Positions 20,476 to 54,371 of a stretch of DNA of 64,000 nucleotides are shown here, one piece after another. Below the pieces are notes generated by a model, which worked only from the letters and a program-made list of their open reading frames with translations, was not told the origin of the DNA and ran no database searches. The stretch is from a virus, in the IMG/VR virus record IMGVR_UViG_3300036792_000363, positions 1-64,000 of that record. One strand, given 5' to 3'. Each line of letters begins with the position of its first letter. Positions within the stretch are counted from its first letter, which is position 1. The position numbers were made by a program, and so were the translations under genes.

Positions 20476-20514
20476 CTTGACTCAAGTCTAGACAGTCTCT
20501 TGACGCGAGTCAAG
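20476..20514 (-). promoter_or_regulatory. Class I promoter with two tandem operator copies
   Basis: CTTGACGCGAGTCAAG (20499-20514) over -35 and CTTGACTCAAGTCTAG (20476-20491) over -10; TTGACT-N17-TAGACT. Confidence 0.8.
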
Positions 20515-20916
20515 ATAACCGGGCTTGGGGCTGTGCTTGTGGCCCTTCTTGAACGGCCGGTTCTCCGCGCGCAGCCGCCCCTCCAGCTCGCCCCGCCGCC
20601 CGACGGTGTTGCGCTCCGGGTCGTAGCGCCGGATCAGCAGCAGCTCGTACAGGTCGGCCTCCGCCTGGTCCTCGACCTTGCGGACCCAGACCCGCGCCGG
20701 GTCGAACTGGCCCTTGAACTGGTAGGAGTGATCCCGGATCCGCGACAGGAAGTGGTCGGACTGCCCGGCGTAGAAGACGTGCCCGTCGCCGATGTCGCAC
20801 AGCGCGTACACCCACCAGCCGGACATGTCGGGGAACAGCTCCGCCTCGATGAACGCCAGCGCGGTGACCCCCGCGGGCGCCCCGGCCTCGGCGGCGCTCT
20901 TCCTGCGGAACAGCAC
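20488..20916 (-). CDS. GIY-YIG nuclease-domain protein
   Basis: WVY-x10-YAG, R..H, conserved E (LYELLLI) and N (PERN); RBS AGGAGG before GTG. Confidence 0.75.
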   Translation of the reverse strand: MLFRRKSAAEAGAPAGVTALAFIEAELFPDMSGWWVYALCDIGDGHVFYAGQSDHFLSRIRDHSYQFKGQFDPARVWVRKVEDQAEADLYELLLIRRYDPERNTVGRRGELEGRLRAENRPFKKGHKHSPKPGYLDSRQETV

Positions 20917-21175
20917 GGGTCCTCCTGAATAATGTTCGGGGGGTAGAGCTCTAGGGGTCGGTTCCGGCGGCACCCGGTTCGGCATCACGGCGGCATCACC
21001 GAACGAATCACCGGTAATCACTGTCAGCGCCGAACATCGCGTCAGCCCGTGGGCTGACAGCGCGGGGCTCAGGGCCGGCATGGCGGGCCGCAGGAAGATC
21101 TGCGGCGCGGGCCCGTCGGGGGCCTCGCATTTCGGGGGTCCCGACGGGAAGATTTCCCGTCAGGCGGGGAGGATC

Positions 21176-21346
21176 CTAGCGGCGGGGGCGTTTCCGCAGG
21201 CCACAGGACCAGGCCATCCCGACCGAGAACCCGAGGCACGCGACCCCGGCCAGCGCCAGCGCGGGGACGGAGCCGTCGATGATGGCGCCCACCGCCGCCA
21301 GGACGGTCAGGGTCACGCCCCAGGCGAGGATGGTGCGCGTCGTCAT
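21176..21346 (-). CDS. Small two-TM membrane protein (possible Spd-type spread protein)
   Basis: MTTRTILAWGVTLTVLAAVGAIIDGSVPALALAGVACLGFSVGMAWSCGLRKRPRR; downstream of the TraB-like gene. Confidence 0.5.
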   Translation of the reverse strand: MTTRTILAWGVTLTVLAAVGAIIDGSVPALALAGVACLGFSVGMAWSCGLRKRPRR

Positions 21347-21789
21347 GGCTGTTTCGTCCCCCGGGCCTGCGTTCGGGCGTCACCGTGGCGCTCAGGGCCA
21401 GGATATCCTCCGTTGCATGACCCGGGTCAACAGGAGGATCTCCGGCGCCAGGACGGCCGCTGCGGGCCGGGGGGGCCTCCTCGCCCGCGCGCGGGGCTCC
21501 GCGGCCCTCCTCGTGGCTCTGCGGGGCTCCCAGGGGCCCTCGCGGGGGCGCCTGCTGGCGGGGGGGCTCCGGGGCGGTTACTGTCAGTGCCGGCGGTGGT
21601 GACTCTCCGTTTGGCCTTCGGCTGATCCGGAGCTTCCTCCGCTTATCCGCCCCCCGAACCCCCGCGAATCCCCCCTCCGCGGCGCCGGCACCCGCCGTCC
21701 CGGCGCCGCCCGCCCCTGCTACCATCGACCCCTGCAGCGCCGCAGGCCCCGGGGCCGGGCTGGGGATGTCGTGATCCCGGCCCCGGGCG

Positions 21790-23751
21790 CTACCCCTCCT
21801 CACCGGGGGCCTCCTGCGACTGCGGCGGGACGATCCGCCACCTCCTGCGCGGCTTGTCGGTCATGAACTCCACCTCGCCGGTCTGGCGCAGCGTCTCCAC
21901 CACGTCGTACAGCCACGACCGGGAGCGCCCCGCCCTCTCGTGAACCTTCGTCTTCTGCAGCTCCAGCGACGTGAACGTGGTCTTGCCCGCCTTCAGCCAC
22001 GCCGCCAGCTGCTCGCGCACCGCCTGCTCCGCCTTCACCGCCGCGTCGTGCTGGTCGGGCTTGGCGGCGAACAGCTGGCGGACGTTCCCGGCGGGCGCCC
22101 TGCCCTCCGTCCCGGGCAGGGCGCCGCCGACCGGGGAGGCGGAGGTGGGGCTGACGGGCGGGGTCCAGGCGAGGGCCTCGCCGGTCACGTCGTCGAGCGG
22201 GCGGTCGACGCTCGGGTACAGGCCCGCGTAGTCGAACACCTGGCGCGCGCCGCCGGTGAAGTGGAAGAACCGCATCGGCATCACGCCGTAGCGCTCGTCG
22301 GGCAGGGTGGGCGCGTCCCAGTAGGCCATGCCGGGCACCCGCTTGCCCCACAGCTCCGGGCGGCACGCGGCCCCCCGCTGGCGGGCGGACAGGCCGTACC
22401 GGGAGTCCTCCGGGGTGTTGACGCCCAGGCACAGGTTGCTCATCTGGCCGTCGGCGACGCTGGGGATCTCGGTGGCCAGCGACAGCTGCAGGTCGATGTT
22501 GTCGGCGATGCCGGCGCTGCGGTTGTTCTTGACGTCGGACTGCCAGTCCTCCAGGGTGAACAGGCCCTGCTGCTGCGCGCGCTTGCCGGACGGCAGCAGC
22601 CGCAGGAAGTCGGGGGCCTCCGCCCAGTACAGGTCCAGGAAGCTCAGCCCGCAGCCGTCCTCCCACTCGATGTAGTGGTTCTTCCCCAGGTAGTCGGCCC
22701 GCATGACCCGGGCCCGGTGCAGCGCGGCGGCGAGGCGGACCGCGCCGTCGGGCTCCTTCTCGAACGCGTGCAGCGCCGTCTCCCAGCAGCCGTAGAACTG
22801 GCTGCCCTTGGACACGTCGACCACCATCGCGGCGTAGCCCTCGCGGGTCACCCCCTCCGCCAGCTGGTTCCAGGACCAGCCGGTGGTCTTCGCCGACCCG
22901 CTGGTGCCCATGGCGCGGGTGTGGAACAGCGGCAGGCGGGCGATCCGGCACTCGGCGCCGTCCTGCCACCGGCCGTAGCGGAACGGGACGGCCATCCCGG
23001 TGCCGGGCGCGCTCGGGCCGGGGAACGGCTCGGGCGTCACCAGCGCCCGCGGGTCGGTGGCGGTGAAGTCCGCGAACGCCGAGTTGCCCGCCTGCGGGGT
23101 GATGGTGACCGACCCGCGCGGGAACTGCAGCCCCTGCTCCAGCCGCTCGGCGGCCCGGGCGGCCTCGTCCATCCCCACCTCCGGCGGCAGCTGCACCCGG
23201 CCGGTCAGCGTCCGGGGGGCCCGGCTGCGGGACGCCCGGCGGCCGGGCGGGGCGGCCTCCGGCTTCGGCTGCCGCGGCTGCCGGGCGGCGGTCAGCGTGG
23301 CGGCCGCGCCCCACGCGGTCTCGCTGGCGCCGCCGAACATCAGCGACAGCTCGTGGCTGCCGGCCGCGTGCAGCCACGCGTCCCAGCCGATGCAGACGAC
23401 CGCGCCGCCCAGCGCCCACGTCAGCGCCAGCGGCACGGAGAAGCCGGCCAGCAGCCAGGCGGCGGTGACGGCGGCCCCGGCCGCGATGGTGACGGGGGCC
23501 ATCATCCGCCCCACCGGCGAGACGCGGCGGCCGTGCAGGTGGGCCAGGAAGGCGGCCAGGGCGAGGCCGAGCGCCAGCACCATGAGCGCGACCAGCCAGT
23601 CCCACCGCGCCAGCAGGAACGGCATCGGGCCGAACACGGCGGTCAGCGCCAGCCAGCACGCCCACGGGATGAGCCCGTGCAGCACCTTGCTCGCAACCTG
23701 GTCGCGGGCGTGGCGGATCTGGGCCTTCGGCCGGTCTCCGTGGTCAGGCAA
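21790..23751 (-). CDS. traB: TraB/TraSA-like FtsK/SpoIIIE DNA translocase of actinomycete conjugative elements
   Basis: N-terminal TM bundle, P-loop GTSGSAKT, Walker B-like VVDVSKG and WAEAP, GMAYW, C-terminal winged-helix-like domain; context with SpdA-like and GntR genes. Confidence 0.75.
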   Translation of the reverse strand: MPDHGDRPKAQIRHARDQVASKVLHGLIPWACWLALTAVFGPMPFLLARWDWLVALMVLALGLALAAFLAHLHGRRVSPVGRMMAPVTIAAGAAVTAAWLLAGFSVPLALTWALGGAVVCIGWDAWLHAAGSHELSLMFGGASETAWGAAATLTAARQPRQPKPEAAPPGRRASRSRAPRTLTGRVQLPPEVGMDEAARAAERLEQGLQFPRGSVTITPQAGNSAFADFTATDPRALVTPEPFPGPSAPGTGMAVPFRYGRWQDGAECRIARLPLFHTRAMGTSGSAKTTGWSWNQLAEGVTREGYAAMVVDVSKGSQFYGCWETALHAFEKEPDGAVRLAAALHRARVMRADYLGKNHYIEWEDGCGLSFLDLYWAEAPDFLRLLPSGKRAQQQGLFTLEDWQSDVKNNRSAGIADNIDLQLSLATEIPSVADGQMSNLCLGVNTPEDSRYGLSARQRGAACRPELWGKRVPGMAYWDAPTLPDERYGVMPMRFFHFTGGARQVFDYAGLYPSVDRPLDDVTGEALAWTPPVSPTSASPVGGALPGTEGRAPAGNVRQLFAAKPDQHDAAVKAEQAVREQLAAWLKAGKTTFTSLELQKTKVHERAGRSRSWLYDVVETLRQTGEVEFMTDKPRRRWRIVPPQSQEAPGEEG

Positions 23752-24688
23752 CGTCCTGCACCCCCTCCGGGGTCTTGTGGCGGCGGCGCAGCTCGGCCGC
23801 CCAGTAGCGGGAGATCTTGTGGATGCGGGCCACCTCGTTGGCGGAGGTGGAGTCGAACAGGGCCCGCAGCGCGGCCTCGCCCTGCGGCAGCGCGGCCATC
23901 ACCTCGGCGGGCGGGTCCCCGGCGCGGCGCTCGCGGCGCGGGGCGGCGGCGACGGCGGGCACCGACTTGAGCGGCCCCGGGTGCGCGGGGGCGGGCGCCG
24001 GGGCGGGGCGGGGCGCCTGCGCCCTGGCGGGGGCGGCGGGCGGCTGCGGGGCGGCGGCGCGGGGGGCCTGCGGCAGGGCCGGGACGGGCAGCGGCAGGAC
24101 GGGGCCGCGCTGCGGCCAGGCCGGGGCCTGCTCCGGGACGGCGGCGGGGCGGCGCGGGATGGCGGCCAGCGCCGCGTCGGCGAGGGCCCCCGCGGCGGCC
24201 ACCGCCTCGTGCAGCCCGGCGATCTCGGCCAGCGCGTCGGCGAGCAGGCCCTCGGCCGACTTCGCGGTCTTGCGGTCCGCCTTGCGGGCGTCCAGCCAGC
24301 GCTCGAACAGGAAGGTGGAGAACGCGAACGCCTGCGCGGGCACCGTCGCCCACCCGGCCGCCCACAGCCCGTGGTGGATGCCGGACTCCCAGTTGGCGAT
24401 CAGCGACTCGGTGATCCCCGGCAGCACGCCGAGCAGCAGGCCGCCCGCCTTCTGCCGCCAGTTCTTCCCGCCCATGAAGTAGGCGCTGCCGATGACGATC
24501 TGGCCGTCGATGCACAGCGGCATCAGGTGCGCCGTCTTCCAGCTCTGCCCCTCCGCCAGGGTCAGCGCGCAGATGTGGGTGAAGGAGATGAACCCGGACG
24601 CGAACGCGACCGCCGCCATCGCCGACCCGACGGTCAGCGACGACGACCGCCCGCGGACCGCCGCCATTATCACACCGAGCTTCCGCAT
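23744..24688 (-). CDS. SpdA-like (DUF2637-type) membrane protein with coiled coil and C-terminal HTH-like end
   Basis: AVAFASGFISFTHI...AHLMPLCIDGQIV...WATVPAQAFAFS TM pattern. Confidence 0.7.
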   Translation of the reverse strand: MRKLGVIMAAVRGRSSSLTVGSAMAAVAFASGFISFTHICALTLAEGQSWKTAHLMPLCIDGQIVIGSAYFMGGKNWRQKAGGLLLGVLPGITESLIANWESGIHHGLWAAGWATVPAQAFAFSTFLFERWLDARKADRKTAKSAEGLLADALAEIAGLHEAVAAAGALADAALAAIPRRPAAVPEQAPAWPQRGPVLPLPVPALPQAPRAAAPQPPAAPARAQAPRPAPAPAPAHPGPLKSVPAVAAAPRRERRAGDPPAEVMAALPQGEAALRALFDSTSANEVARIHKISRYWAAELRRRHKTPEGVQDVA

Positions 24689-24975
24689 CACGCCGCCGCC
24701 TTCCGGGCCCCGGGGAACCGCTCGTCCCACCACCGGCGCGACGCCGCGGCCATGTCGCCCGCCACCCCGGGCCGGGCTGAGGCGAGCACCGCGTCCAGCC
24801 AGGAGGCGTAGGTCGCCTTGCCGCCGGGCTGCTGCACGGCGGGCATGGCGATGGCCGGGTCGGCGAACCAGTTGTCGAGGGTGTCGGTCGAGCGGCCGAG
24901 CACCTTCGCGGCGCGCGGCCACGGCACCAGGGCGTCCCTGCGGCTCACCCGGGCCGCTGCTGCGGTCTCGCACAT
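24688..24975 (-). CDS. Small excisionase/MerR-like helix-turn-helix protein
   Basis: LVPWPRAAKVLGRSTDTLDNWF; RBS GGAGGG. Confidence 0.65.
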   Translation of the reverse strand: MCETAAAARVSRRDALVPWPRAAKVLGRSTDTLDNWFADPAIAMPAVQQPGGKATYASWLDAVLASARPGVAGDMAAASRRWWDERFPGARKAAA

Positions 24976-25016
24976 TCTTCGGCCCTCCGGCCCTCTCCCG
25001 AACTTTCCGCGATTCT

Positions 25017-25051
25017 CGTCCACTGTACGGTGAACCATACAGGTACGCAAG
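25017..25051 (-). promoter_or_regulatory. Promoter of the transfer operon with a palindromic operator in the spacer
   Basis: Minus strand TTGCGT-N17-TACAGT; imperfect palindrome CTGTACGGT-GA-ACCATACAG at 25023-25042. Confidence 0.6.
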
Positions 25052-25124
25052 GCATTCCCGGGCGCGCTGCCTGGGGGCGGGTAAAATCAGGCGCATCTGC
25101 ACCATCCACAGCACAGGAGACAGA

Positions 25125-25859
25125 GTGCCGCCCGTACGACGCACTGACCCGGCCCACCGCCAGCTGGCGGACTACTACAAGCAGCGGATCCTGTCAGGCG
25201 AGCTGCGCCCCGGCGACCCGATCCCGTCAGTCCGGCAGATGGCCCGCGCCTCGCAGGTCTCCCCCGCCACCGCCCAGCGCGCGATCGAGTGGCTGAGGGC
25301 GGGCCGGCTGGTGGACACCGGCCCGGCCGGCACGGTGGTCGCCCCGCTGCGGGCCGCCATCTCCCCGCAGCAGCGGCTGCGGCTGACCGGGGACCCGGAG
25401 TCGGAGTCGCAGGAGGTCACCTCCGCCGGCCTGGTCGAGGCGCCCGAGTACGTCCGGGCGATCTTCGGCCTGGCGGAGGGCGACGCGGTGCTCCGCCGCG
25501 AATGGGTGACGCTGGAGGACGGCGGGCCGTCGCGGCTGACCGTGACCTGGCACCGGGCGGACGCCTCCGGCCTGGTGCCGGAGCTGCTGGCCGAGGCCCC
25601 GCTACCCGACCCGCGGGGCGGGGCGGCGATGATCGCGGCGCGCTCGGGCTGGGACCTGGCGGTCCTTCGCGGCGGCAGCGCGTTCGAGTGCCGGGCAGCG
25701 AAGGACGACGGCCGGGAGCGGCCGCTGCTGCGCCTGGCGCGCGGGGCGTGCGTGCTGGCCGGGGTGTGGACCTGGGCCGGGCCGGACGGCGAGGTGGCCG
25801 AGTACGGCGAGTACATCGTGCCGCCCGGCCGGGTGATCGAGGCGGACATCGAGCCGTAG
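25125..25859 (+). CDS. GntR/HutC-family repressor with UTRA domain (KorSA/TraR-like), divergent from the transfer operon
   Basis: QLADYYKQRILSGELRPGDPIPSVRQMARASQVSPATAQRA winged helix plus C-terminal UTRA-like region; RBS AGGAG, GTG start. Confidence 0.9.
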   Translation: MPPVRRTDPAHRQLADYYKQRILSGELRPGDPIPSVRQMARASQVSPATAQRAIEWLRAGRLVDTGPAGTVVAPLRAAISPQQRLRLTGDPESESQEVTSAGLVEAPEYVRAIFGLAEGDAVLRREWVTLEDGGPSRLTVTWHRADASGLVPELLAEAPLPDPRGGAAMIAARSGWDLAVLRGGSAFECRAAKDDGRERPLLRLARGACVLAGVWTWAGPDGEVAEYGEYIVPPGRVIEADIEP

Positions 25860-25873
25860 ACCCCCGGGAACCA

Positions 25874-25914
25874 AGAAAAAGACCTGCCGTGGCTGGTGCG
25901 GCAGGTCTTTTTCT
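25874..25914. terminator. Bidirectional intrinsic terminator between converging genes
   Basis: AGAAAAAGACCTGCCG ... CGGCAGGTCTTTTTCT. Confidence 0.85.
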
Positions 25915-26081
25915 ATTCCGGAAGCATCTTCAGGGCGTTGATGGCGCGCACCGCGCGCAGCCGGCAGTCGCAGATGAGCGACACCTCCGACCGGGGGCAC
26001 CGCGGCCACGCCTGCGAGCAGTCCTCCTCGATCGCGGCCAGCGTCCGGGCCACCGCCGCCAGCGCCTGCGGCGAGCCCAGG

Positions 26082-26411
26082 TCAGGCAAGGCTCTCCCAC
26101 TGCCACGTCGGCAGGCCGGCCGTGGTCAGGCGCACCCGGTACTGGCCCGGCGGCGGCATGACCCCGGGGATGAAGGCCTCCTCCACGGCGCACGTCAGCA
26201 GCTCGCCGCCGACCCGCTCGCGCAGCGGGTGCTTGGCGCGCCACCCGTCGTCGGTGACCTCCACCAGGTGCGCGGTCTCCTCCTCGGCGAGGATCTCCGC
26301 CACGGTCGTCGGCCGGGGGCAGCCGGGGCGCGAGCACACCACCGCGCCGCCCTCGCCCAGCGTCAGGAACTCCCCGCAGCCCTGCGGGCAGTGGCCCGCC
26401 ACCCAGATCAT
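26082..26411 (-). CDS. Cys-rich actinophage protein (DUF6085-like)
   Basis: GHCPQGCG...VVCSRPGCPRP...HPLRER...LLTC. Confidence 0.6.
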   Translation of the reverse strand: MIWVAGHCPQGCGEFLTLGEGGAVVCSRPGCPRPTTVAEILAEEETAHLVEVTDDGWRAKHPLRERVGGELLTCAVEEAFIPGVMPPPGQYRVRLTTAGLPTWQWESLA

Positions 26412-28796: not shown

Positions 28797-28930
28797 GCGC
28801 TGCTCCCTTCCTGCGGCGGCAATCGGACGCGGGGATGGAAAAACCGGGAAACCATGGCCGGATGCGCAAACGAGACCTAAGCTGCCGCAGGGTGCGCTTC
28901 CGCCGGGGTGGCGGCGCGAGGGAGGGGTCG

Positions 28931-30286
28931 ATGAGCACGCAGGAGAGCAGCCCGAGAGACGGCGGCCGGAGATTCGGGCTGCCGGAGAGGGCGGCCCGCA
29001 AGAAGGGCAGGCCGGCGGCGGGGCTGCCGAGGACCAGGGCGGCGAGCGCCCTGCTGGCCGACCCGCCGGTGGCCGGGCCGACCGGGCGGATCCCGCTCGG
29101 GGACCCGGAACCGGAGTCGGCCGGGCCCGGGCGGGCGGAGCCCGCCGAGATCAACCCGGCGGCCATCCGGCTGTCGCTGGAGGGGATGGAGGCCGACGCG
29201 CAGAAGTGCGCGGGCGACTTCTACGGCTACCTGTTCAACGGGTGCCCGCGCCTGCGGGAGCTGTTCCCGCCGATGATGGACGTGCAGAACGAGCGGCTGT
29301 TCGCGGCGCTGCTGAAGATCGCGTCGCTGCTGGAGACCCCGGACCAGCTGGCCCGCTACCTCGCCCAGCTGGGCGCCGACCACCGCAAGTACGGGGTGCG
29401 CCCGGAGCACTACGCGCCGGTCGGGGACGCGCTGCTGCGCACCCTGCGCCGGCACTGCCCCAACTGGAGCGCCGAGGCGGAGGCGTCGTGGGCGGCCGCC
29501 TACGCGATGGCCGCCGAGCACATGATCTTCGCCGCCGCCACGGCGCGGGGCCCCGCCACCTGGCGGGCGCAGGTGATCCGGCACGAGCAGCGCGCCCGCG
29601 GGCTGGCGGTGCTCACCCTGCAGACCGACCAGCCGCTGCCGTACCGGCCGGGGCAGTACATCACCGTGCAGCACCCGAAGTGGCCGCGGGTGTGGCGGCA
29701 GTTCTCGATCGCCAACCCGCCGCAGATGTACGGCGAGCGCAGCCTCATCGAGCTGCACGTGCGCCAGGTGCGCGGCGGCTGGGTGAGCGGCGCGCTGGTG
29801 CGCGACACGGAGCTGTTCAGCGAGGTGACCATCGGGCCGCCGGCCGGGCTGATGACCGCCGACGCGCTCGGCGAGCGCGACCTGGTGGCGGTGGCCGGCG
29901 GCACCGGCCTCGCCCCGGTGAAGGCGGTCGTGGCGGCGGTGCTGATGGCCGACGAGGCCTCCGTGGCGGCCGGCGGCGGGTACCGGCGCAACATCCACCT
30001 GTTCCACGGCGCGCAGACCCCGACCGGCCTGTACGACATGCCCGCGCTGCGCGAGCTGTCGGATGTCTACCCCTGGCTGCAGGTGGTGCCGGTGGTGGCG
30101 GACGAGAACTTCCCCGGGCTGACCGGCTGCGTCTCCGACGCGGCGCTCGACTACGCGGAGTGGGCCGGCCGGGAGGCGCTCATCGCAGGCCCGCCGGACA
30201 TGACCGCGCTGGCCGTCAAGCAGTTCCGGGACGCAGGGTTCCTGGACATGCAGGTGCACTACGACCAGCTGGAGACGCAAGGGTAG
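28931..30286 (+). CDS. Globin-domain FAD/NAD(P)H oxidoreductase (flavohaemoglobin-like) with an ~85-aa low-complexity N-terminal extension
   Basis: Globin DFYGYLF..CP.LRELF...QLGADHRKYGVRPEHY..VGDALL; FAD-binding YRPGQY, RQFSIAN; NAD-binding VAGGTGLAP, GPPDM; RBS GGAGG. Confidence 0.92.
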   Translation: MSTQESSPRDGGRRFGLPERAARKKGRPAAGLPRTRAASALLADPPVAGPTGRIPLGDPEPESAGPGRAEPAEINPAAIRLSLEGMEADAQKCAGDFYGYLFNGCPRLRELFPPMMDVQNERLFAALLKIASLLETPDQLARYLAQLGADHRKYGVRPEHYAPVGDALLRTLRRHCPNWSAEAEASWAAAYAMAAEHMIFAAATARGPATWRAQVIRHEQRARGLAVLTLQTDQPLPYRPGQYITVQHPKWPRVWRQFSIANPPQMYGERSLIELHVRQVRGGWVSGALVRDTELFSEVTIGPPAGLMTADALGERDLVAVAGGTGLAPVKAVVAAVLMADEASVAAGGGYRRNIHLFHGAQTPTGLYDMPALRELSDVYPWLQVVPVVADENFPGLTGCVSDAALDYAEWAGREALIAGPPDMTALAVKQFRDAGFLDMQVHYDQLETQG

Positions 30287-31462
30287 GTGCTGATGTTCAC
30301 CTCCAGGCGCAGGACGACGGCGGAGTCCGTCCCCCTGGAAGAAGCCGAAAGGTTCGTGCGCGAGTACCACGCCGAGAACGGGGGCGAGGAGGGCAGGCGG
30401 CTGCGCGAGGTGCGCGCGTCGATCGCGCGCACCGGCACGTACCGGCACACGACGGCGGAGCTGGCGTGGGCGGCGCGGGCCGCCTGGCGGCACAGCGCCC
30501 GGTGCACCGGGCGCTACAACTGGCGCACGCTGCGGGTGCGGGACCTGCGCGGGGTCTCCGACCCCGACCGGGTGGCGGCGGAGACGATCGAGCACCTGCG
30601 CGTCGCCACCAACGGCGGCAGGGTCCGCTCCTACATCACGGTGTTCGCGCCGGACGAGCCGGGGCTGCCGGGGCCGCGCATCCTCAACGCCCAGACGGTG
30701 CGCTACGCCGGCTACCGGCAGCCGGGCGGCGAGGTGACCGGCGACCCGGGCAACGTCGGCCTCACCGACCTGGCGCGGGGGCTGGGCTGGCGCGGGGGCG
30801 GCGGGTCGTTCGACGTCCTGCCGCTGGTGATCTCCTCGGGCGGCCGGCTGCGGCTGTTCGAGGTGCCGCGGGACGCGGTGCTGGAGGTGCCGATCACCCA
30901 CCCCGACTTCCCCTGGTTCGCGGGGCTGGGGCTGCGCTGGTACGCGGTCCCGGTGGTGACCGACATGTACCTGGAGGCGGGCGGGGTGCGCTACCCGTGC
31001 GCCCCGTTCAACGGCTGGTACCAGGCGTCCACCGAGGTGGGCGTGCGCAACTTCGGGGACGAGGCGCGCTACGGGATGCTGCCCGCGGTGGCGGCGGGGA
31101 TGCGGCTGGACACGAGCAGCGAGTCGACGCTGTGGCGCGACCGCGCGGCGGTGGAGCTGGCGGTGGCGGTCACCCACAGCTTCAAGGCGGCCGGGGTGAT
31201 GGCGACCGACCACCAGACCGAGACGCGCCGGTTCATGAAGTTCGCGGAGACCGAGCGGGCGGCGGGGCGGCCGTGGAGCGCGGACTGGGGGTGGATCGTC
31301 CCGCCAATCGGGGGCTCGACCACCCCGCCGTTCCACGCGACCTACCCGAACGAGACGCTCACCCCGGGGTTCTTCCGGCACGACCCGCCGGACACCGCGC
31401 TCGCGGCGTGCCCGTTCGAGCACGGCGGCGCCTGGCGGGGCACCGCCAGCATCGCCGGCTGA
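30287..31462 (+). CDS. nos: Nitric oxide synthase oxygenase (bacterial type)
   Basis: Heme-thiolate motif AWRHSARCTGR, NAQTVRYAGY, GDP, FDVLPL, WYAVP, PFNGWY...TEVGVRNF, DHQT, ADWGWIVPP. Confidence 0.97.
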   Translation: MLMFTSRRRTTAESVPLEEAERFVREYHAENGGEEGRRLREVRASIARTGTYRHTTAELAWAARAAWRHSARCTGRYNWRTLRVRDLRGVSDPDRVAAETIEHLRVATNGGRVRSYITVFAPDEPGLPGPRILNAQTVRYAGYRQPGGEVTGDPGNVGLTDLARGLGWRGGGGSFDVLPLVISSGGRLRLFEVPRDAVLEVPITHPDFPWFAGLGLRWYAVPVVTDMYLEAGGVRYPCAPFNGWYQASTEVGVRNFGDEARYGMLPAVAAGMRLDTSSESTLWRDRAAVELAVAVTHSFKAAGVMATDHQTETRRFMKFAETERAAGRPWSADWGWIVPPIGGSTTPPFHATYPNETLTPGFFRHDPPDTALAACPFEHGGAWRGTASIAG

Positions 31463-31817: not shown

Positions 31818-34800
31818 CTAGGGCCCGAGCCGGGTGAACTTGCTGCCGTACCCGGTGATGGTCTCGCCGCTCGCGGTCGCGCCCCACTCCGCCGCGACGG
31901 CCACCGTGTTGGCGGCGGTGGTGTTGAACGCGATGGTCGAGTACGTGCTGCTGAGGTAGCCGTTGTTGTTGTTCGTCCCGGACGAGCGCGTGCCGGCATT
32001 GCCGACCCCGCCGTCCAGGAACACGGAGGCCGCGCCCGACCCCCCGGTGGAGACGACCTGCAGCTTGGCGCGGATGGTGCCGGCGAAGTTGGACGCGCTC
32101 GGGAAGAACGCCGGCCCGATGGTGATGGCCGCGCCCTGCTGGGAGCTGTTGAGCCAGAGCGTCCAGGTGAGCGTCTGGTTCTCGAACAGGCCGAAGAACG
32201 GGACCTCCACCTCGTACATGGTGGTGAACTGCGCGGTGTTCGCGGGGATCGACCAGGCCTTGGTGATGGCCGTGTACCCGGTGGAGGTGGCGGTGTAGGT
32301 GGCGGCGTCCACCTGGACCAGCGGGACGTAGCCGAAGGCCCCCGAGCCCGTCATCACCTCGACGCTGGTCCCCGTCGCGGACCCGGCCGGGGCCGGGAAG
32401 ATCTTGGCCCCCGCCGTCGGGGCGGCCGGGGCGGTGGCCGGGACGGCGAGGGTGAGCACGCCCTTCGCGTCGGTGCCCAGGTTCGGCCCGGCGGGGATCG
32501 AGTTGCCGTACTGGTCGATGAACGCCGGGCCGGTGTTGACGAAGAACCCGACGCTGGGCGTGCCCGTGATGTAGCTGAGCCGGACCTGCCCGTTCGCGCC
32601 CGCCGCGCCCGGGCTGATGTTGACCCCCGGGCGGGACCCGCCGCCTCCGCCGCCTCCGCCGGGGGTGAACCCGGCCTGCCCGGGCGACGCCCCGGAGGCG
32701 TGGGACGCGCCGCCCGCGCCGCCCGCGCCGCCGCCCGCCACGGCGGGCCCGCCCGCGCCGCCGTTGGTGCCGCTGGTGCCCGCGGGCGTGTCCCCGCCGT
32801 TCCCGAAGCCTCCGCTGCCCCCCGAGCCGCCGCCTCCGCCGCCGCCCGCGCCGCCGCCGTTCCCGGCGCCGAAGCCGCCCGTGTTCGCGATCGAGTTGCC
32901 GCTGGCCGCGCCGCCGTTGCCCCCGACGCCCGAGCCCGCGTTCCCGGGGGACCCGGGGTTGCCCGTCACGGTGGCGCTGGAGCCGGTGAGCGTGGACGCG
33001 CCGCTCGCCGCGCCGCCGTTCGACCCGACCGCGCCGCCGCTGCCGCCCGACCCGACCGAGTAGGAGACGGTGCCGCCGCTCGGCACCGCCAGGACCGGCT
33101 CGCAGCCGTAGCCGCCGCCGCCGCCCGCGCTGCCGCCGAACCCGGACGAGTTGCCGCCTCCGCCGCCTCCGCCCGGGCCCCAGGACTCGCCCTTGGCGAC
33201 GGTGATCCCGGCCGGGATGGGGATGGTGCCGCTGCCGCTGGTCTTGGTGACGATGACCTGGCTGCCCGCGCCCGAGTACAGGATCATCGCGTACGGGGAC
33301 AGCGCCATCAGCGGGGTGAACACCAGCGTCTCGCCGTCGGGGGTGCTGGTGGTGCCGAACGTCACCACCGCGGTGTCGGACCCGGTGTCGTTCTCGCTCT
33401 CCAGCAGCATCGCCGCGCCGGTGGTGGAGGCCAGCGGGCTGGAGACGACCAGCGACTGCTTGGTGGTGCCCCCGCTGCCCACGTCCATCGCGCCGATGAG
33501 GCCGGGGATGACCTCGTTGGAGTCGCCGCTGTTGTACTGGGTCATCGCGGTCAGGACGCCCGCGATGGCCGTGGTCAGGTTGAACGCCTGGTCGGCGTTC
33601 GGCTGCAGCACCAGGTTGCTGGAGCCCGGCGCCCCGATCATCAGCCCGGCCGGGTAGCTGTTGCCCGCGCCGCCGGAGACGGCCGAGTCGTTGCCCGCGG
33701 TCGCCGACCACGACCCGATCAGGTTGCCGACGGCGGGCGGGCCGGCGTAGACGAACACCTCGCCGGACGTGCCGTAGGCGACGAACTGCGCGCCCTCCAC
33801 CAGGGTGCCGTTCACCACCCCGGCCAGGATGATCCCGACCGCGATCTGGTTGGCGGTGATCGACAGGGCCTCGATGAGCTGGCCCTGCACCTGCCCGGCG
33901 GCCACCGCCCCGGTCACGTAGACGGTGACGCCCGAGGACGGCAGCTCGATGACCTGGTACCCGCTGGTGGTCCCGGAGGGGGCGTCCGACACCATCGCCA
34001 GCGGCGTCCAGATCGCCGGCGGGACGCTGAACGTCTGCAGCCCGCCCGCCCAGTTGAACCCGATCTGCACGTTGACCGCGGACCCCGACGGGTTGTAGAC
34101 CCAGGCGGTCATCGAGTAGGGCTGGCCCGCCGTCACCGGGAACGGGGCGGGCGACCCGTTCATGTACCCGTTGGCCGCGGTGGACGCCAGCTGCGCGCAC
34201 CACGGCGGGGCCCCCGGCGCCCCCGCGGGGACGGACTGGGTGGCGGTGAGGGTGGCGTTGGCGGCGGCCCACCCGGTGAGCGACCCGCCGTTGAAGAACG
34301 GGTTGGGGTTGAGGGCCCAGGACCCGGCGCTGTTGCCGAGCACGCTGGCCGGCAGCTGCCCGGTGACGATGCCGCCGGGCACCCCGGTGGCGGTGGCGGC
34401 CGCGCCGGGGGTGGGGGCGGAGGCGTTGCCCGAGGTGTTGACCGCGGTCAGCTTGGCCCAGTAGGTGACGCCCGCCGTCAGGCCGTTGACCGCCACGGTG
34501 CCCGCCGTCTGCAGCGTGCCCATCAGGGTGGACGGGCCCGGGGTGAACGACGAGGAGGTGCCCAGGTAGACCTGGACGTACTGGAAGTCGGACAGCGGGG
34601 TCGCGCCGCCCCCCACCTTCCCGTCCCAGGTGATGGTGACGCCCGCGATGACGCCGACGGCGGCCGGGGTGTCGGGAACGCCGGGGGCGGGGCCGTTGGA
34701 GTCCACGACGGTGACGGTGCCGTCGCCCTGCAGCCCGACCGTGGTCCTGGTGGCCCCGTTGACGACGATGACGGTGGTGTCGGGGGCCTGGGTGTTGGAG

Positions 34801-37800
34801 GCGGTGGGGCTGGACACCGACGACGGCAGCGTGCTCCCGGTCACCGGGTCGGTGGTGCCGGCCAGCTGGTAGTTCCCGGTGGTCGGGTTGTAGACCAGCG
34901 GCGAGTTGGCGAGGGTGCTCCCGGCCGACCCGGTGGCGACGTCGGCGAGCCGGGCGAGGGTGGCGGCCGGGTCGAAGTAGGTGGGGACCTGCCCGGTGCC
35001 GTACTTGCTCGGGGCCACCGGGCTGGTGCCGAGCACGTTGACGAACTGGCCGCCCAGCCGGCTGGAGATGTAGGTCAGCTGCTCCTGCAGCCACTGGATG
35101 TAGCTGATGAGCGTCAGCTCGTGCGCCTCGTTGCCGCCGGAGTCCACCGACACGGCGATGCCCATCACCCGCACGTCGTCGACCGCCGAGAAGTCGGGCC
35201 GCTCCAGGCCCAGCCAGTCGCCGACGCTGAAGTTCTCGAAGACCGTCCGGCCCGGCAGGTTGGGCGCCAGCTGCAGGGTCCAGCTCAGGATCTCGGTCTC
35301 GTTCTGCGCCAGCGCCGACGCGGTGGCGTAGGCCATCGAGGTCGGGTCCACCTGGACCGCGGTCTGGTACCAGGCCTCCCGCTGCCCCCACTGCGCGATG
35401 TAGCCCGGGCTGGAGGCGGAGATCTCGTGCCCGTCGGCGTTCTCCCCGCCGATGAGGGTGGTGATCTGGTTGCGGGCGCGGACCCGGGTCTTGGCGGCGC
35501 AGTCGTAGCCCTCGCGCAGGATCAGGTACGAGGACCGGTCGGTGCCGAGCGCCACCTGCCCCGGCGCCGGCTGGCCGACCCGCAGCTGGAACCCGGGCAG
35601 CATGATGTAGTCGGCGTTCACCACCGACGCGGCGGACTGCAGGAACGAGTACAGGTCGGTGCCGTTGGTGGCCTGCACGTTCTGGGCGTCGCTCCAGGCC
35701 CGGCCGAAGCTGTCGGCGGTCGCGCTGGTGTCGGTGTGCATGAACGGGATGGTGCCGCGCGCCTTGGCGGCCTCGAACTGGTCGAGCCACACGCCCATCA
35801 GCGGGACGTTCAGGTAGATCCGGCCCTGGTAGCTGGGGGTGGTGACGTTGGAGTTCAGGTTGGTGAGCTGGGCCGACTGCCCGGTGCCGGAGTAGGAGGC
35901 GGTGAAGTAGAGCGAGACGTCGGTCGCGTCCCAGTTGTGGACGATCGTCCACTGCTGGGTCCAGGTCTGGCCGTCGGGGCTGGTCCAGAAGTAGAACGTG
36001 CCCGACCCGCCGGGGGTGCCGCCCTGCTCGGTGATCTGCCAGTACGCGTGGCTGGTCGGGTTATAGGCGGGCAGCACCTTGGTGTAGGTGCCGCTCGGCC
36101 CCCGGAACTGGCAGTAGAAGGCCGACGCCGACAGCCCGAACAGCGCGTAGTAGGCGGTGTTGAGGTTGGACTCGATGTAGAACTGGGTCAGCTGCGAGCC
36201 GTTCAGCCCGGCCCCGTACGGGGCCGGGGTGGAGGAGTCGGCCGCGTTGGCGCTCACCCCGACCGGGGTCACCTGGGCGGAGATCAGGGTGTTGGTCGCG
36301 TCGTAGGGCGACGCCCCCAGGAACGTGGTCCCCGGGGTGGCCACCAGGGTGACCGACCCCGACGGGTACAGGGTGGACAGCGCGTAGCCGGTCCCGCCCG
36401 GGTAGTTGTAGATGACCCCGGTCGGGGTGATGTAGACGTCGGCGGCCGGGGTGGCGGTGGTCCAGATGTTGGTGTCGAGGACCCCGTTGCCGTTGACGTC
36501 GGTCTCGTCGAAGCTGTCGAGGATGCCGTCGAGCTTCAGGATGATGTCGGGGAAGCCCTGCGGGGCGATCATCGCCCACTTGAGGGCGGCGATGGTGCCG
36601 GGCCCGGTGATGGTGGCGGTGCGCTGCTCGGACGGGTCCACCAGCTGCTCGGTGACGGTCTCGCCGAAGAACTCGAACCGGCGCACCCCGTCCTGCCAGA
36701 ACTGCCACAGGCACTCCTCGTCCAGCAGGGTGGACGAGGGCAGCCCGCCGGGGAGGGTGACGTGCTGCCACCACGGGTCGTCCTGCGACAGCACCACCGT
36801 GCCGGAGCCGATGTCGTCCAGCTGCATCGCGAACTGGAAGCTGACCAGCATCGACGACGGGATGACGGCCAGCAGCGTCACGTAGTCGGCGGCGGAGACG
36901 ACCTGGATCTCCCACCCGTTGCCCACCGCCGACGGGGTGATCGCGCCGACCCCGGCCGGGCCGCCCGGGTAGCCCGCCGGGTTGACGGCGGCGGGCATGC
37001 CCGTCTGCACGGTGGGGCCGGACCCCAGGCGCGGCCCGCCCAGCCGCCCGCCGACGGGCGGGTTCGCCCCGACCACGCCGGGCAGCGTGCCGATGAAGGT
37101 GGACGGCTCGGGCGGCAGGATGACCGCGCCGCCGGCGGACGTCCCCAGCGCGGCCATGGCCAGGTGGCCGGTGCCGGTCACGTTGCTGCCGTGCTCGGAG
37201 CCGGCGCCGGACATCCCGAGCGGGGCCATGGCCAGGGACCCGGCGGAGGTGACCCCGCCGCCCGTCTGGGACCCGGCGCCCGACACGCCCAGCGGGGCCA
37301 TGGCCAGGTGGCCGGCGGAGGCGATGTTCTCGCCCGCGGCGCCCGACACGCCCAGCGGGGCCATGGCCAGGGACCCGGCGGAGGTGACGGCGGGCGGGGC
37401 GCCGATGACGAGGATCGCCGAGCTTGGCACGTCCCAGGTGGCGCCGGTGGTGAGCGTGCACGACACCGCCGAGCCCGCCGTGGCCGCCACGTTGTAGGCG
37501 GCGAGCGTGTCGGTGAAGGACAGCAGGGTGTAGCCGCTGGACGCGCCCGTCCACTCGCCGTTCAGGAGGCTCGTGTTGACGCAGACCAGGACCGGGCTGC
37601 CGGACGGCGCGTTGACCGACGGCGTGGTGATGCTGCTGACCCCGCTGGCGAGGGTGCCGTTGGAGGCCGCGCCGAGCACCCGGGCCCCGGCCGGCAGGCC
37701 GCTGAACTCCTGGACCTGGACCTCGGCGAAGTCGCCGCTGCCCGACAGCACGACAGTGACGGAGGTGACCGCGTTCGCCACGAGGCAGCAGGCGATGGCG

Positions 37801-38051
37801 GTCATCCCGTACTGGGTGACCGAGGCGTCGTAGGAGCCGTTAACCGGCGGGTTCTGGTTGGCGGTGGCGGTCGAGTAATTCCACGTGTTGCCGGCGGTGT
37901 CGCTGATGGAGACGATGTGGAGCGCGGTGTTGCTGGTCACCCACTGCGTCGCGTACAGGACCAGGCAGTGCCCGGCAGTGGTGGTGATCGGGACGGTGAA
38001 CGTCGTGCCGCCGCCGGTCTGCGCCGTCCCGTCCTGGACGTGCGTGGTCAC
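31818..38051 (-). CDS. Large multidomain tail tip/central fibre protein (2077 aa)
   Basis: Tal/hub-like segment (WEIQV...LDDIGSGTVVL), FN3-like and carbohydrate-binding-like (NPNPFFNGGSLTGW) domains, Gly-rich C-terminal region. Confidence 0.85.
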   Translation of the reverse strand: MTTHVQDGTAQTGGGTTFTVPITTTAGHCLVLYATQWVTSNTALHIVSISDTAGNTWNYSTATANQNPPVNGSYDASVTQYGMTAIACCLVANAVTSVTVVLSGSGDFAEVQVQEFSGLPAGARVLGAASNGTLASGVSSITTPSVNAPSGSPVLVCVNTSLLNGEWTGASSGYTLLSFTDTLAAYNVAATAGSAVSCTLTTGATWDVPSSAILVIGAPPAVTSAGSLAMAPLGVSGAAGENIASAGHLAMAPLGVSGAGSQTGGGVTSAGSLAMAPLGMSGAGSEHGSNVTGTGHLAMAALGTSAGGAVILPPEPSTFIGTLPGVVGANPPVGGRLGGPRLGSGPTVQTGMPAAVNPAGYPGGPAGVGAITPSAVGNGWEIQVVSAADYVTLLAVIPSSMLVSFQFAMQLDDIGSGTVVLSQDDPWWQHVTLPGGLPSSTLLDEECLWQFWQDGVRRFEFFGETVTEQLVDPSEQRTATITGPGTIAALKWAMIAPQGFPDIILKLDGILDSFDETDVNGNGVLDTNIWTTATPAADVYITPTGVIYNYPGGTGYALSTLYPSGSVTLVATPGTTFLGASPYDATNTLISAQVTPVGVSANAADSSTPAPYGAGLNGSQLTQFYIESNLNTAYYALFGLSASAFYCQFRGPSGTYTKVLPAYNPTSHAYWQITEQGGTPGGSGTFYFWTSPDGQTWTQQWTIVHNWDATDVSLYFTASYSGTGQSAQLTNLNSNVTTPSYQGRIYLNVPLMGVWLDQFEAAKARGTIPFMHTDTSATADSFGRAWSDAQNVQATNGTDLYSFLQSAASVVNADYIMLPGFQLRVGQPAPGQVALGTDRSSYLILREGYDCAAKTRVRARNQITTLIGGENADGHEISASSPGYIAQWGQREAWYQTAVQVDPTSMAYATASALAQNETEILSWTLQLAPNLPGRTVFENFSVGDWLGLERPDFSAVDDVRVMGIAVSVDSGGNEAHELTLISYIQWLQEQLTYISSRLGGQFVNVLGTSPVAPSKYGTGQVPTYFDPAATLARLADVATGSAGSTLANSPLVYNPTTGNYQLAGTTDPVTGSTLPSSVSSPTASNTQAPDTTVIVVNGATRTTVGLQGDGTVTVVDSNGPAPGVPDTPAAVGVIAGVTITWDGKVGGGATPLSDFQYVQVYLGTSSSFTPGPSTLMGTLQTAGTVAVNGLTAGVTYWAKLTAVNTSGNASAPTPGAAATATGVPGGIVTGQLPASVLGNSAGSWALNPNPFFNGGSLTGWAAANATLTATQSVPAGAPGAPPWCAQLASTAANGYMNGSPAPFPVTAGQPYSMTAWVYNPSGSAVNVQIGFNWAGGLQTFSVPPAIWTPLAMVSDAPSGTTSGYQVIELPSSGVTVYVTGAVAAGQVQGQLIEALSITANQIAVGIILAGVVNGTLVEGAQFVAYGTSGEVFVYAGPPAVGNLIGSWSATAGNDSAVSGGAGNSYPAGLMIGAPGSSNLVLQPNADQAFNLTTAIAGVLTAMTQYNSGDSNEVIPGLIGAMDVGSGGTTKQSLVVSSPLASTTGAAMLLESENDTGSDTAVVTFGTTSTPDGETLVFTPLMALSPYAMILYSGAGSQVIVTKTSGSGTIPIPAGITVAKGESWGPGGGGGGGNSSGFGGSAGGGGGYGCEPVLAVPSGGTVSYSVGSGGSGGAVGSNGGAASGASTLTGSSATVTGNPGSPGNAGSGVGGNGGAASGNSIANTGGFGAGNGGGAGGGGGGGSGGSGGFGNGGDTPAGTSGTNGGAGGPAVAGGGAGGAGGASHASGASPGQAGFTPGGGGGGGGSRPGVNISPGAAGANGQVRLSYITGTPSVGFFVNTGPAFIDQYGNSIPAGPNLGTDAKGVLTLAVPATAPAAPTAGAKIFPAPAGSATGTSVEVMTGSGAFGYVPLVQVDAATYTATSTGYTAITKAWSIPANTAQFTTMYEVEVPFFGLFENQTLTWTLWLNSSQQGAAITIGPAFFPSASNFAGTIRAKLQVVSTGGSGAASVFLDGGVGNAGTRSSGTNNNNGYLSSTYSTIAFNTTAANTVAVAAEWGATASGETITGYGSKFTRLGP
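37140..37390 (-). repeat. Four tandem ~20-aa repeats (S/T-A/G-G-S/H-LAMA-P/A-LG-x-S) in the tail tip protein
   Basis: Repeated CCCAGCGGGGCCATGGCCAG-like DNA units. Confidence 0.8.
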
Positions 38052-40704: not shown

Positions 40705-41568
40705 CTAGACGTACGCGTCGTTCCAGGCGAAGGTCGCGGTCCCGGCCGTGTTGGTGATGACGTTGGCGCCGCTGAGCAGGCACTGCCACATCCGGCTGCC
40801 GACGTGGCTGAGCCCGCCGACGCAGTTGTTGCCCGCGGCGTCGACGGCGGTGTAGCGCAGGATGTCGATCGTCACCGGGTAGGCCGCCACGCCCGCGCCG
40901 CTGTGGGTGAGGCTCACCCCGGCGGTGGTGTTGGTGACGGTGGTCGCGGCGGTGATGGTGACGGTGAACGAGTTGACGGCCGACGCGAACCCCTCGCCCA
41001 CCACCCCCTCGCCGTAGGCGTTGATCGTCGCGCCCGCGGTGGTGACCGCCTGGGTGCGCGCCCCTCCGTAGAAGTACGGGTCGGACAGCAGCAGGTCGAC
41101 GCTGAAGGCGGCCGAGGTGCGGCCGTTCATCGTCGGGTCCATGCTGCCCGCCAGCTCCGCCATCGCGGTCGACTGGACCATGGTCGGGGTGCCGTTGAGC
41201 GTCCAGTACCAGTTGCGCTGCAGCTGGCTCTGCACCTGCCCCTGCGCGCCGCGCTTGAAGAACAGCGCCCGCAGCGCCTGCCAGTTGTCGTTGAACGCCC
41301 GCCGCGGGTCGCCCGCCGGGTACGACTGGTTGGCCGACATCTGGCTGTCGGTCCACATGGTCAGGGTGATGGTGCGCTCGTCCGGGTACTTGGACCGCCA
41401 CAGCTGGCCCGCCCGGTAGGGCACCTGGTAGTCCTGGCCGCGCAGCGTCGGCACCCCGGCGCGCGACCCCCCGAAGGTGGCCACGTTGTAGTAGCTGGTC
41501 GACAGCGGGACCCCGTTGAAGTACCAGATCTCATTCGGGGAGTAGGCCCCCACCGGCGCGCTGGGCAT
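40705..41568 (-). CDS. Distal tail protein (Dit-like)
   Basis: Directly after the tape measure; ERTITLTM, F.VDLLLSDPYFYG. Confidence 0.8.
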   Translation of the reverse strand: MPSAPVGAYSPNEIWYFNGVPLSTSYYNVATFGGSRAGVPTLRGQDYQVPYRAGQLWRSKYPDERTITLTMWTDSQMSANQSYPAGDPRRAFNDNWQALRALFFKRGAQGQVQSQLQRNWYWTLNGTPTMVQSTAMAELAGSMDPTMNGRTSAAFSVDLLLSDPYFYGGARTQAVTTAGATINAYGEGVVGEGFASAVNSFTVTITAATTVTNTTAGVSLTHSGAGVAAYPVTIDILRYTAVDAAGNNCVGGLSHVGSRMWQCLLSGANVITNTAGTATFAWNDAYV

Positions 41569-53415: not shown

Positions 53416-53434
53416 GGTGCCTCCAGGCACGACG

Positions 53435-53464
53435 AAGGGCGGGACCCGGACAGGTCCCGCCCTT
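53435..53464 (-). terminator. Hairpin in the leader of the peptidase gene
   Basis: AAGGGCGGGACC/GGTCCCGCCCTT. Confidence 0.5.
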
Positions 53465-53477
53465 GCGAATCGGCCCG

Positions 53478-54287: not shown

Positions 54288-54371
54288 AGAAGTAGCTCCT
54301 CAACATCAGGTCGGGGTGCGGGTTCCGTGACGCTAGCACCGGCAATCACGCCCGCGCAGCCGAACGCGCCA

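Follow-up and report, generated by a model that had tools for sequence, protein, structure and literature searches.

Why would a large tailed phage carry a conjugation pump of the plasmid type? The transfer of double-stranded DNA (dsDNA) by a single protein, TraB, is regarded as a speciality of the plasmids and the actinomycete integrative conjugative elements (AICEs) of mycelial actinomycetes. The question is raised by a stretch of 64,000 nucleotides from the IMG/VR virus record IMGVR_UViG_3300036792_000363 (positions 1 to 64,000, here called the window, to which all plain coordinates refer), which holds at 21176–25914 a gene for a TraB-like protein together with a divergent repressor gene and a short operon. 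The best explanation of this region, judged from its sequence, is a plasmid-derived cassette of the TraR/TraB type for moving dsDNA, which would have been captured once by the ancestor of one phage subclade and kept as a syntenic accessory module in phages whose hosts are mycelial actinomycetes. That we are dealing with a conserved and functional TraB-type cassette appears very probable.

Genes were called from G+C content at third codon positions (GC3) together with family searches. All elements that an earlier, sequence-only reading had listed for the region were recovered in this way:

21176–21346, minus strand: small protein of 56 residues with two transmembrane segments (the 2-TM protein); GC3 of 0.96, hydropathy, orthologues
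21347–21789, minus strand: conserved non-coding element of 443 bp; alignment of five phages
21790–23751, minus strand: TraB-like protein of 653 residues; NCBIfam NF041214 (plasmid_TraB), fold model
23744–24667, minus strand: DUF2637-family membrane protein of 307 residues; Pfam PF10935
24688–24975, minus strand: small helix-turn-helix (HTH) protein of 95 residues, first gene of the operon; sequence, orthologues
24976–25124, no strand assigned: divergent control region of 149 bp; sequence, conservation in relatives
25125–25859, plus strand: GntR/HutC-type repressor of 244 residues, TraR/KorA-like; Pfam GntR, phrog_10724, GntR of plasmid pJV1
25874–25914, no strand assigned: bidirectional intrinsic terminator; stem, folding energy, shuffles

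The TraB-like protein and its cassette

The identity of the cassette hinges on its largest protein. It matches NF041214 with an E value of 5.9e-44 and 150.6 bits, and misses the equivalog cut-off of 800 bits, which makes it a homologue and not an equivalog of the plasmid family. The same model is matched in all five genomes tested, with 122–142 bits in the relatives and over profile positions 12–636 in G002. Further matches are phrog_24831, a PHROG of unknown function (E 8e-27), and, by tblastn, 33 actinomycete plasmids at 24–36% identity; those of Nonomuraea and Thermobispora rank first, with annotated Streptomyces traB genes next.

From 27 homologues, AlphaFold2 built a model (mean confidence score, pLDDT, of 78) in which four long N-terminal helices precede a β-rich domain and a RecA-like core; a disordered linker and, at the C-terminus, a winged helix come last. 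In terms of domains, the predicted protein consists of a helical membrane domain at about residues 10–147, an ATPase of the FtsK/HerA type, the linker at 535–565 and the winged helix at 567–640; its C-terminus matches NF041214 positions 557–637, and a TrmB winged-HTH match at 599–643 is sub-threshold. Foldseek (E 1e-12 to 1e-10, probability 1.00) returned as top PDB matches the dsDNA-bound FtsK motor (6T8G, E 1.8e-12), 6T8O, 2IUS and the conjugation coupling protein TcpA. The ATPase motifs comprise Walker A GTSGSAKT at 282–289, the Walker B Asp312 and RSAG...Q at 411–422, and we take the RxxG...Q pattern to be the counterpart of the FtsK motor motif. K288, D312, R411, S412, G414 and Q422 are invariant across the 27 homologues. 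Pfam FtsK_SpoIIIE (PF01580), which had been proposed as a check from the letters alone, does not match the protein, and when five genomes were searched in six frames at E ≤ 1, only an unrelated 11-bit match in G003 came up. The relationship to FtsK is drawn from the NCBIfam TraB match and the predicted fold.

Does the unusual P-loop speak for a pump that has lost its activity? Its reading as GSAKT, to which a doubt about activity had been attached, was correct, with Lys and Thr kept and the canonical Gly replaced by Ala. About 20 diverged homologues near the clade keep the Ala, whereas farther relatives and pJV1 have Gly, a distribution that suggests a conserved trait of the clade and not a sign of decay. 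Four TraB homologues (P0010, P0011, P0043 and P0054) are about 1020–1040 residues long. In P0011, a LAGLIDADG-type, intein-like insert of about 370 residues interrupts the P-loop exactly between its Lys and Thr; P0010 carries a LAGLIDADG domain (PF14528), and from their length and split profile match we infer inteins in P0043 and P0054 as well. Inteins typically occupy indispensable sites. Since GSAKT is conserved in the near clade and an intein lies inside the P-loop in some homologues, the site is probably functional.

The traB gene starts with TTG and overlaps the stop of the upstream DUF2637 gene by 8 nt, an arrangement that points to translational coupling of the two. The DUF2637 protein has a hydrophobic N-terminal domain, a linker rich in Pro and Ala and, at the C-terminus, a conserved HTH-like tail. 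Its PF10935 score is marginally above the gathering score (23.2 bits against 22.8), and the family is matched by five of seven orthologues (best E 2.1e-10), which occupy the same position in the relatives at 45–54% identity in four of them, 30% in L015 and 23% in L014. The gene had been described as SpdA/DUF2637-like. The family assignment stands; the SpdA part found no support, no similar protein having turned up in the plasmid collection or beside plasmid or genomic TraBs. A search of pJV1, pCQ3, the Nonomuraea plasmid p1 and two proviruses also gave no DUF2637 protein, a weak null as no control genome matched either. Further upstream, the HTH gene has a ribosome-binding site GGAGGG 7 nt ahead of its ATG. 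The motif of its product resembles Xis/MerR; the protein itself matches no family, and weak HTH_17/MerR matches appear in two of five orthologues (best E 2.8e-4). Orthologues are present in all relatives at 43–47% identity.

Opposite the operon stands the repressor. Of the GntR-UTRA architecture ascribed to it, the GntR domain is secure (37.3 bits, cut-off 27) and UTRA stays below threshold (19.5 bits, cut-off 23.8). The protein matches phrog_10724 (E 4e-24), is 34% identical to the pJV1 GntR encoded beside traA-traB (E 8e-14) and has orthologues of 43–59% identity in six relatives. The operon is preceded on the minus strand by a host-type, sigma-70-like promoter, TTGCGT-17 nt-TACAGT, and a 20-bp palindromic operator CTGTATGGTTCACCGTACAG (25023–25042) spans its spacer and -10 hexamer. 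The GntR promoter has its -10 box TAAAAT at about 25083–25088 on the plus strand. Operon promoter and operator are kept in L010–L013 and, in weaker form, in L014, and CTGTATGGTTCACCGTACAG occurs only once in the 125-kb record. A consensus promoter and terminator scanner found none of the sites later recognised by comparison. Because the divergent promoter carries a conserved, record-unique operator, the module reads as a self-contained unit of repressor and operon, of the kil-kor kind.

The terminator is a perfect stem of 18 bp, flanked by an A-run and a U-run (-37.1 kcal/mol, z -5.4; 0 of 200 shuffles folded as well). It had been recognised before as bidirectional, and was thought to close the operon; it lies at the other end of the module, where the GntR gene converges with a gene at 25913–26089. 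At the operon end, the 2-TM protein has two hydrophobic segments, predicted as transmembrane helices, and a basic C-terminus (MTTRT...LRKRPRR). Orthologues hold the same position in L010, L012 and L013, and L011 has a shorter version; BLASTP identity to the L012 and L013 genes is 40%, and the only Pfam match, DUF202, is sub-threshold. Just past it, at 20488–20916 on the minus strand, a GIY-YIG-like protein is encoded (Pfam 23.8 bits on a longer frame). It travels with the module in L010–L014 at 30–48% identity and may belong to it because it is kept there. In relatives, a winged-helix-like protein of about 72–76 residues follows traB directly (L010:12064–12282, L011:4208–4438, L012:12017–12238), with further small open reading frames (ORFs); the window has none of these, and the non-coding element adjoins traB.

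This element is conserved in an alignment of five phages. It contains a GC-rich hairpin right after the traB stop (about 21745–21786, z -2.4), an invariant 13-mer GCCGAAGGCCAAA at 21610–21622, a conserved pentamer CTGAC and an invariant AGGATATCCTG..CCTGAGCG with a 10-bp palindrome at 21400–21409, the probable promoter/operator for the 2-TM gene. Five GGAGSSCC motifs on the same strand, at 21570, 21530, 21510, 21500 and 21480, are spaced 10, 20 or 40 bp apart. The cluster is unique in the 125 kb, any other 150-nt stretch of the record holding at most one motif. In plasmid TraB systems a cis-acting clt locus, with repeated 8-bp sequences recognised by TraB, has the place near traB that the element has here, and we regard the element as a candidate clt only. 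Rfam gave only a chance microRNA match on 20900–21900, a generic repeat finder run on the module gave only noise, and the covariation term of RNAalifold was unfavourable, so that the element is not called a structured RNA. At the position of the element, L014 has two TAGATATCTAGATATCT palindromes.

The cassette in related phages

The window forms the first 64 kb of a record of 124,773 bp (CheckV completeness 82%), has a G+C content of 72% and carries almost all of its genes on the minus strand. Outside the window the record encodes a major head protein, maturation protease, portal, large terminase and endolysin, as well as a clamp, clamp loader, DNA polymerase, DnaB-like and SNF2 helicases, a sigma factor and glycosyltransferases. 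The tailed-phage context assumed from the window is thereby borne out.

Is the cassette a passing guest in this genome? A protein search found about 35 full-length TraB homologues of 31–64% identity, many of them on contigs of 146–153 kb, with P0002 as the closest (64%); 352 cluster representatives reach E ≤ 1e-30. Six IMG/VR records, L010–L015, share the gene order around TraB: a giant tail protein, variable cargo, g052, GntR, HTH, DUF2637, TraB, small ORFs, a gap of about 400 bp, and the 2-TM, GIY-YIG-like and YdjM-like genes. Compared with the window, their capsid proteins are 78–90% identical, their TraBs 35–47% and their GntR proteins 43–59%. The TraBs of the clade are monophyletic with a support of 100, apart from plasmid TraBs and from those of other viral records. 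Given its synteny across six related phage records, the cassette was acquired once, long ago, and has remained a stable, fast-evolving accessory module of one subclade. The idea of a captured transfer function thus holds for the capture itself; what has to be added is that the module is old, vertically kept and syntenic in its subclade. Outside this group, five distant relatives (G010, G012, G013, G015 and G016; 93–100% complete, capsid 54–76% identical) carry no TraB, with positive controls found in the same search. One of them, G010, shares 56 of 159 proteins and differs in its early arm.

Three independent assemblies of about 150 kb, L010 (G001), L011 (G007) and L014 (G004), end 0.1–6 kb from the TraB module, and, measured from the capsid gene, G007 and G009 share their starting point. 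These ends suggest either strain-level hypervariability or a real genome end nearby.

Genes of integration and maintenance were sought in five to six subclade genomes, of which most are 97–100% complete. None has a tyrosine integrase (PF00589), resolvase (PF00239), large-serine recombinase (PF07508), ParB (PF02195) or ParA (PF13614), whereas control genomes did give matches; PF01656 gave only sub-threshold P-loop matches. No att-like repeats flank the cassette, and the window has no tRNA. That the module is not a complete AICE, as had been supposed, is in line with these results; no rep gene turned up either, though no search aimed at Rep families was made. An inserted AICE is contradicted by the missing integrase, recombinase, ParA/B, att repeats and tRNA together with the synteny in six records. 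Should one think more broadly of a recent, independent insertion of an AICE or small plasmid, or of a decaying, inactive remnant, the non-canonical P-loop and a G+C content of 0.75–0.78, slightly above the 0.72 of the flanks, could be cited in support. We consider this extremely unlikely: besides the missing att-like direct repeats, tRNA and int, genes and position are the same in the six records, all frames are intact with a GC3 of 0.96–0.99, the catalytic residues are invariant and the P-loop Ala is conserved among diverged sequences.

The same searches bear on another possibility, namely that the phage persists as a prophage or phage-plasmid and conjugates in the true sense, by way of TraB, from the hyphae of one mycelium to those of another. 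An experimental precedent exists in pZL12, whose transfer needs its tra gene, as cited in two reports (PMC3583192, PMC4487206). A host-type, sigma-70-like promoter under a repressor would suit long-term carriage, and other TraB-bearing IMG/VR records are classed as proviruses. Against this stand the absence of integrase, recombinase, ParB and ParA from the subclade genomes, and the record's own replisome and sigma factor, the make-up of a large virulent phage. In addition, peptide patterns that the clade conserves, run against 185,579 species genomes, brought up no clade member and only distant TraBs, the best cellular match, from Streptosporangium, being 33–38% identical. We thus see no sign of the prophage or plasmid state that the sequence-only reading had envisaged, and conjugation from such a state seems quite unlikely. 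The "direct terminal repeats" assigned to G003 by IMG/VR were rejected as proof of a virulent genome with such repeats, as they may only mean a self-closing assembly.

Which bacteria do these phages infect? A tblastn search with TraB against 50,697 records of cultured phages returned nothing even at E 0.1, which sets the clade apart as a different, uncultured lineage from the cultured Streptomyces phages. The carriers of the cassette are uncultured tailed phages of about 150 kb that infect filamentous soil actinomycetes; the phage of the window is known from a single soil metagenome. Their likely host order is Streptosporangiales and not, as first associated with the module, that of Streptomyces, because the nearest cellular relatives of both TraB and a neighbouring nitric oxide synthase (NOS) belong to Streptosporangiales. 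For NOS the closest named cellular homologues are from Nonomuraea, Microtetraspora, Spirillospora and Bailinhaonella, with 58–63% identity.

This NOS gene (bacterial oxygenase, Pfam E 7e-134) and a flavohaemoglobin-like gene with globin, FAD and NAD domains lie at 28892–31462 on the plus strand. The pair forms a cargo cassette on the opposite strand, with tail genes on one side and the TraB module on the other; L010 and L014 have only a flavohaemoglobin-like gene at this position. The NOS of the window is 81% identical to one on a contig of 152,467 bp, and the closest TraB homologue, P0002, is also located on a contig of 152,467 bp. Two giant ORFs at 31818–38051 and 41361–49469 on the minus strand, of 2077 and 2702 residues and without a Pfam match, presumably encode tail, tape-measure or host-recognition proteins. 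Both are conserved, the first at 41–68% identity in the relatives.

Elsewhere in the window, early genes ending at 2064, 3696, 4215, 6220, 15824, 16777 and 18359 on the minus strand have in common a promoter based on the palindrome TTGACTCCAGTCAAGC, with TAGACT-like -10 boxes about 7 nt after it and a common leader ending in CCGAGCGAGAGGCAGGCA. A promoter of this TTGACTCCAGTCAAGC type is also found in the gap downstream of traB in L015. At 53824–53855, GCCACAGG is repeated three times with a period of 12 nt, inside a 956-bp stretch without a called gene (53416–54371).

Possible roles of the pump

What might a phage gain from such a cassette? By analogy with the plasmid systems, one can envisage the following course of events. 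The GntR protein, bound to the operator that overlaps the operon promoter, would keep the HTH, DUF2637 and TraB genes off, as in kil-kor logic. Upon derepression during infection, TraB would gather into a ring anchored in the membrane at septal cross-walls or hyphal contacts, probably with the DUF2637 membrane protein, to which it is translationally coupled, as a partner. Its winged helix would recognise the phage genome, with a candidate binding site in the non-coding element downstream of traB, and the ring would pump replicating phage dsDNA into neighbouring compartments or hyphae, whereby the infection would spread through the mycelium free of virions.

We hold the central step, a TraB ring that with its DUF2637 partner pumps phage dsDNA from one hyphal compartment or hypha to another, to be a reasonable proposal that falls somewhat short of an even chance. 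The more far-reaching idea, that apparently virulent phages of about 150 kb use a domesticated conjugation pump as a "movement module" to spread without virions, receptors or lysis, is more speculative and on balance doubtful. If it were true, such a module would be the bacterial counterpart of the movement proteins of plant viruses. Should the pump move phage DNA, infection could spread independently of virions inside a multicellular bacterium, with bearing on plaque size, host range, receptor-based resistance and the ecology of soil phages.

Several observations weigh against this interpretation. At 150 bits, TraB scores far under the 800 bits that NCBIfam sets for an equivalog, the protein does not match Pfam FtsK_SpoIIIE (PF01580), and its Walker A motif carries Ala at the canonical Gly position. 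No Spd homologues were found, and the DUF2637 protein has no match in the plasmid collection by tblastn nor beside cellular TraBs. The candidate clt pattern was found post hoc; the genome has about 20 sites with exact 8-mer triplets, and when the gaps of six phages were put to an unbiased test for repeats, in which the best 8-mer with at most one mismatch was compared with Markov simulations, the outcome was not significant (16–56 of 100 simulations reach the observed count). TraB is dispensable for this kind of phage, as the complete relatives without the gene demonstrate. Finally, what a host-lysing phage would gain from a DNA pump is hypothetical.

Two further roles for the same pump deserve attention. 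It could act on the host or on competitors, either as a kil function that arrests or damages hyphae or by excluding or expelling incoming plasmid or phage DNA. Overexpression of TraB is toxic in plasmids, as established for kil-kor systems, and the tight repression through a single operator resembles such control. The contrast between TraB (35–47% identity) and capsid (78–90%) suggests an arms race or changing specificity, and the module lies in a variable early/accessory arm beside the NOS and flavohaemoglobin genes, a cargo that would manipulate the host. Yet no PADLOC defence family matches any module protein, and both a sequence-specific winged helix and the full translocase architecture have been kept, which toxicity alone would not need. 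An effect on host or competitors thus appears unlikely.

Alternatively, the pump could handle phage DNA within the infected mycelium, clearing or segregating concatemers at closing septa or loading prespore compartments so that spores carry the phage. The FtsK/SpoIIIE fold of the TraB model would suit such a task; the protein, however, is of the plasmid TraB type with a TraR-like repressor and not of the chromosomal FtsK/SffA type, PF01580 is unmatched, and related complete phages replicate without TraB. We judge this role highly unlikely. Whichever role applies, the clade offers a diverse, naturally varying set of TraBs for the study of recognition specificity, including forms with the Gly-to-Ala P-loop and forms that bear inteins.

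Comparison with known systems

The closest parallels are the traR-traA-traB units of pJV1 (NC_001759), pSN22 and pSVH1. In these, as in the phage, a GntR repressor is divergent from an operon that ends in a TraB of about 650–680 residues, the operator overlaps the operon promoter, and TraB joins an FtsK-like ATPase to a membrane anchor and, at the C-terminus, a winged helix. The pJV1 TraB aligns collinearly at 25% identity (E 3e-17) and its GntR at 34%, and both are homologous to the phage proteins; together with the same divergent layout, this supports the Streptomyces-plasmid architecture noted from the sequence alone. The phage differs from pJV1 in what lies between repressor and TraB, namely an Xis/MerR-like HTH protein and the DUF2637 protein in place of TraA; pJV1 TraA and the DUF2637 protein share no similarity. 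Further differences from the Streptomyces plasmids are the absence of spd genes and of demonstrable clt repeats, GSAKT in place of GSGKT, and a virion-encoding genome of 150 kb.

With AICEs of the pSAM2 type (korSA/traSA/spd) the cassette shares a GntR-type Kor repressor and a single FtsK-like Tra for dsDNA transfer. Unlike in these elements, an integrase and a tRNA att site were not found, and no Rep or excisionase turned up, though Rep families were not the target of any search.

Among phages, FtsK/SpoIIIE-like genes are annotated in the cultured Streptomyces phages Geonosis, Jaresh and AndoPrime (PMC11536984, PMC13587820). These are actinophage ATPases of the FtsK superfamily by annotation, and the phrog_24831 profile match is their only link to the phage TraB described here. 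Literature searches on phage-borne TraB brought up nothing beyond these genes and pZL12.

The Streptomyces plasmid-phage pZL12 (phage ZL12), as cited in two reports (PMC3583192, PMC4487206), is a plasmid of about 90 kb with ParA/ParB and a plasmid state, whose conjugal transfer needs the tra gene and adjacent genes. Likened by these descriptions, pZL12 and the phages of the clade both combine genes for phage particles with a Streptomyces-type tra gene in one genome; unlike pZL12 as so described, the clade has no par or int genes for its maintenance and looks virulent. While the single tested phage case is a plasmid-phage, the same machinery is here long fixed in large phages without evident lysogeny or plasmid maintenance. 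What these phages add to the known systems is a delimited lineage of large, apparently non-temperate phages with an old, syntenic and rapidly diverging TraB cassette, a conserved Gly-to-Ala exchange in its P-loop and, in some homologues, an intein in that very loop.

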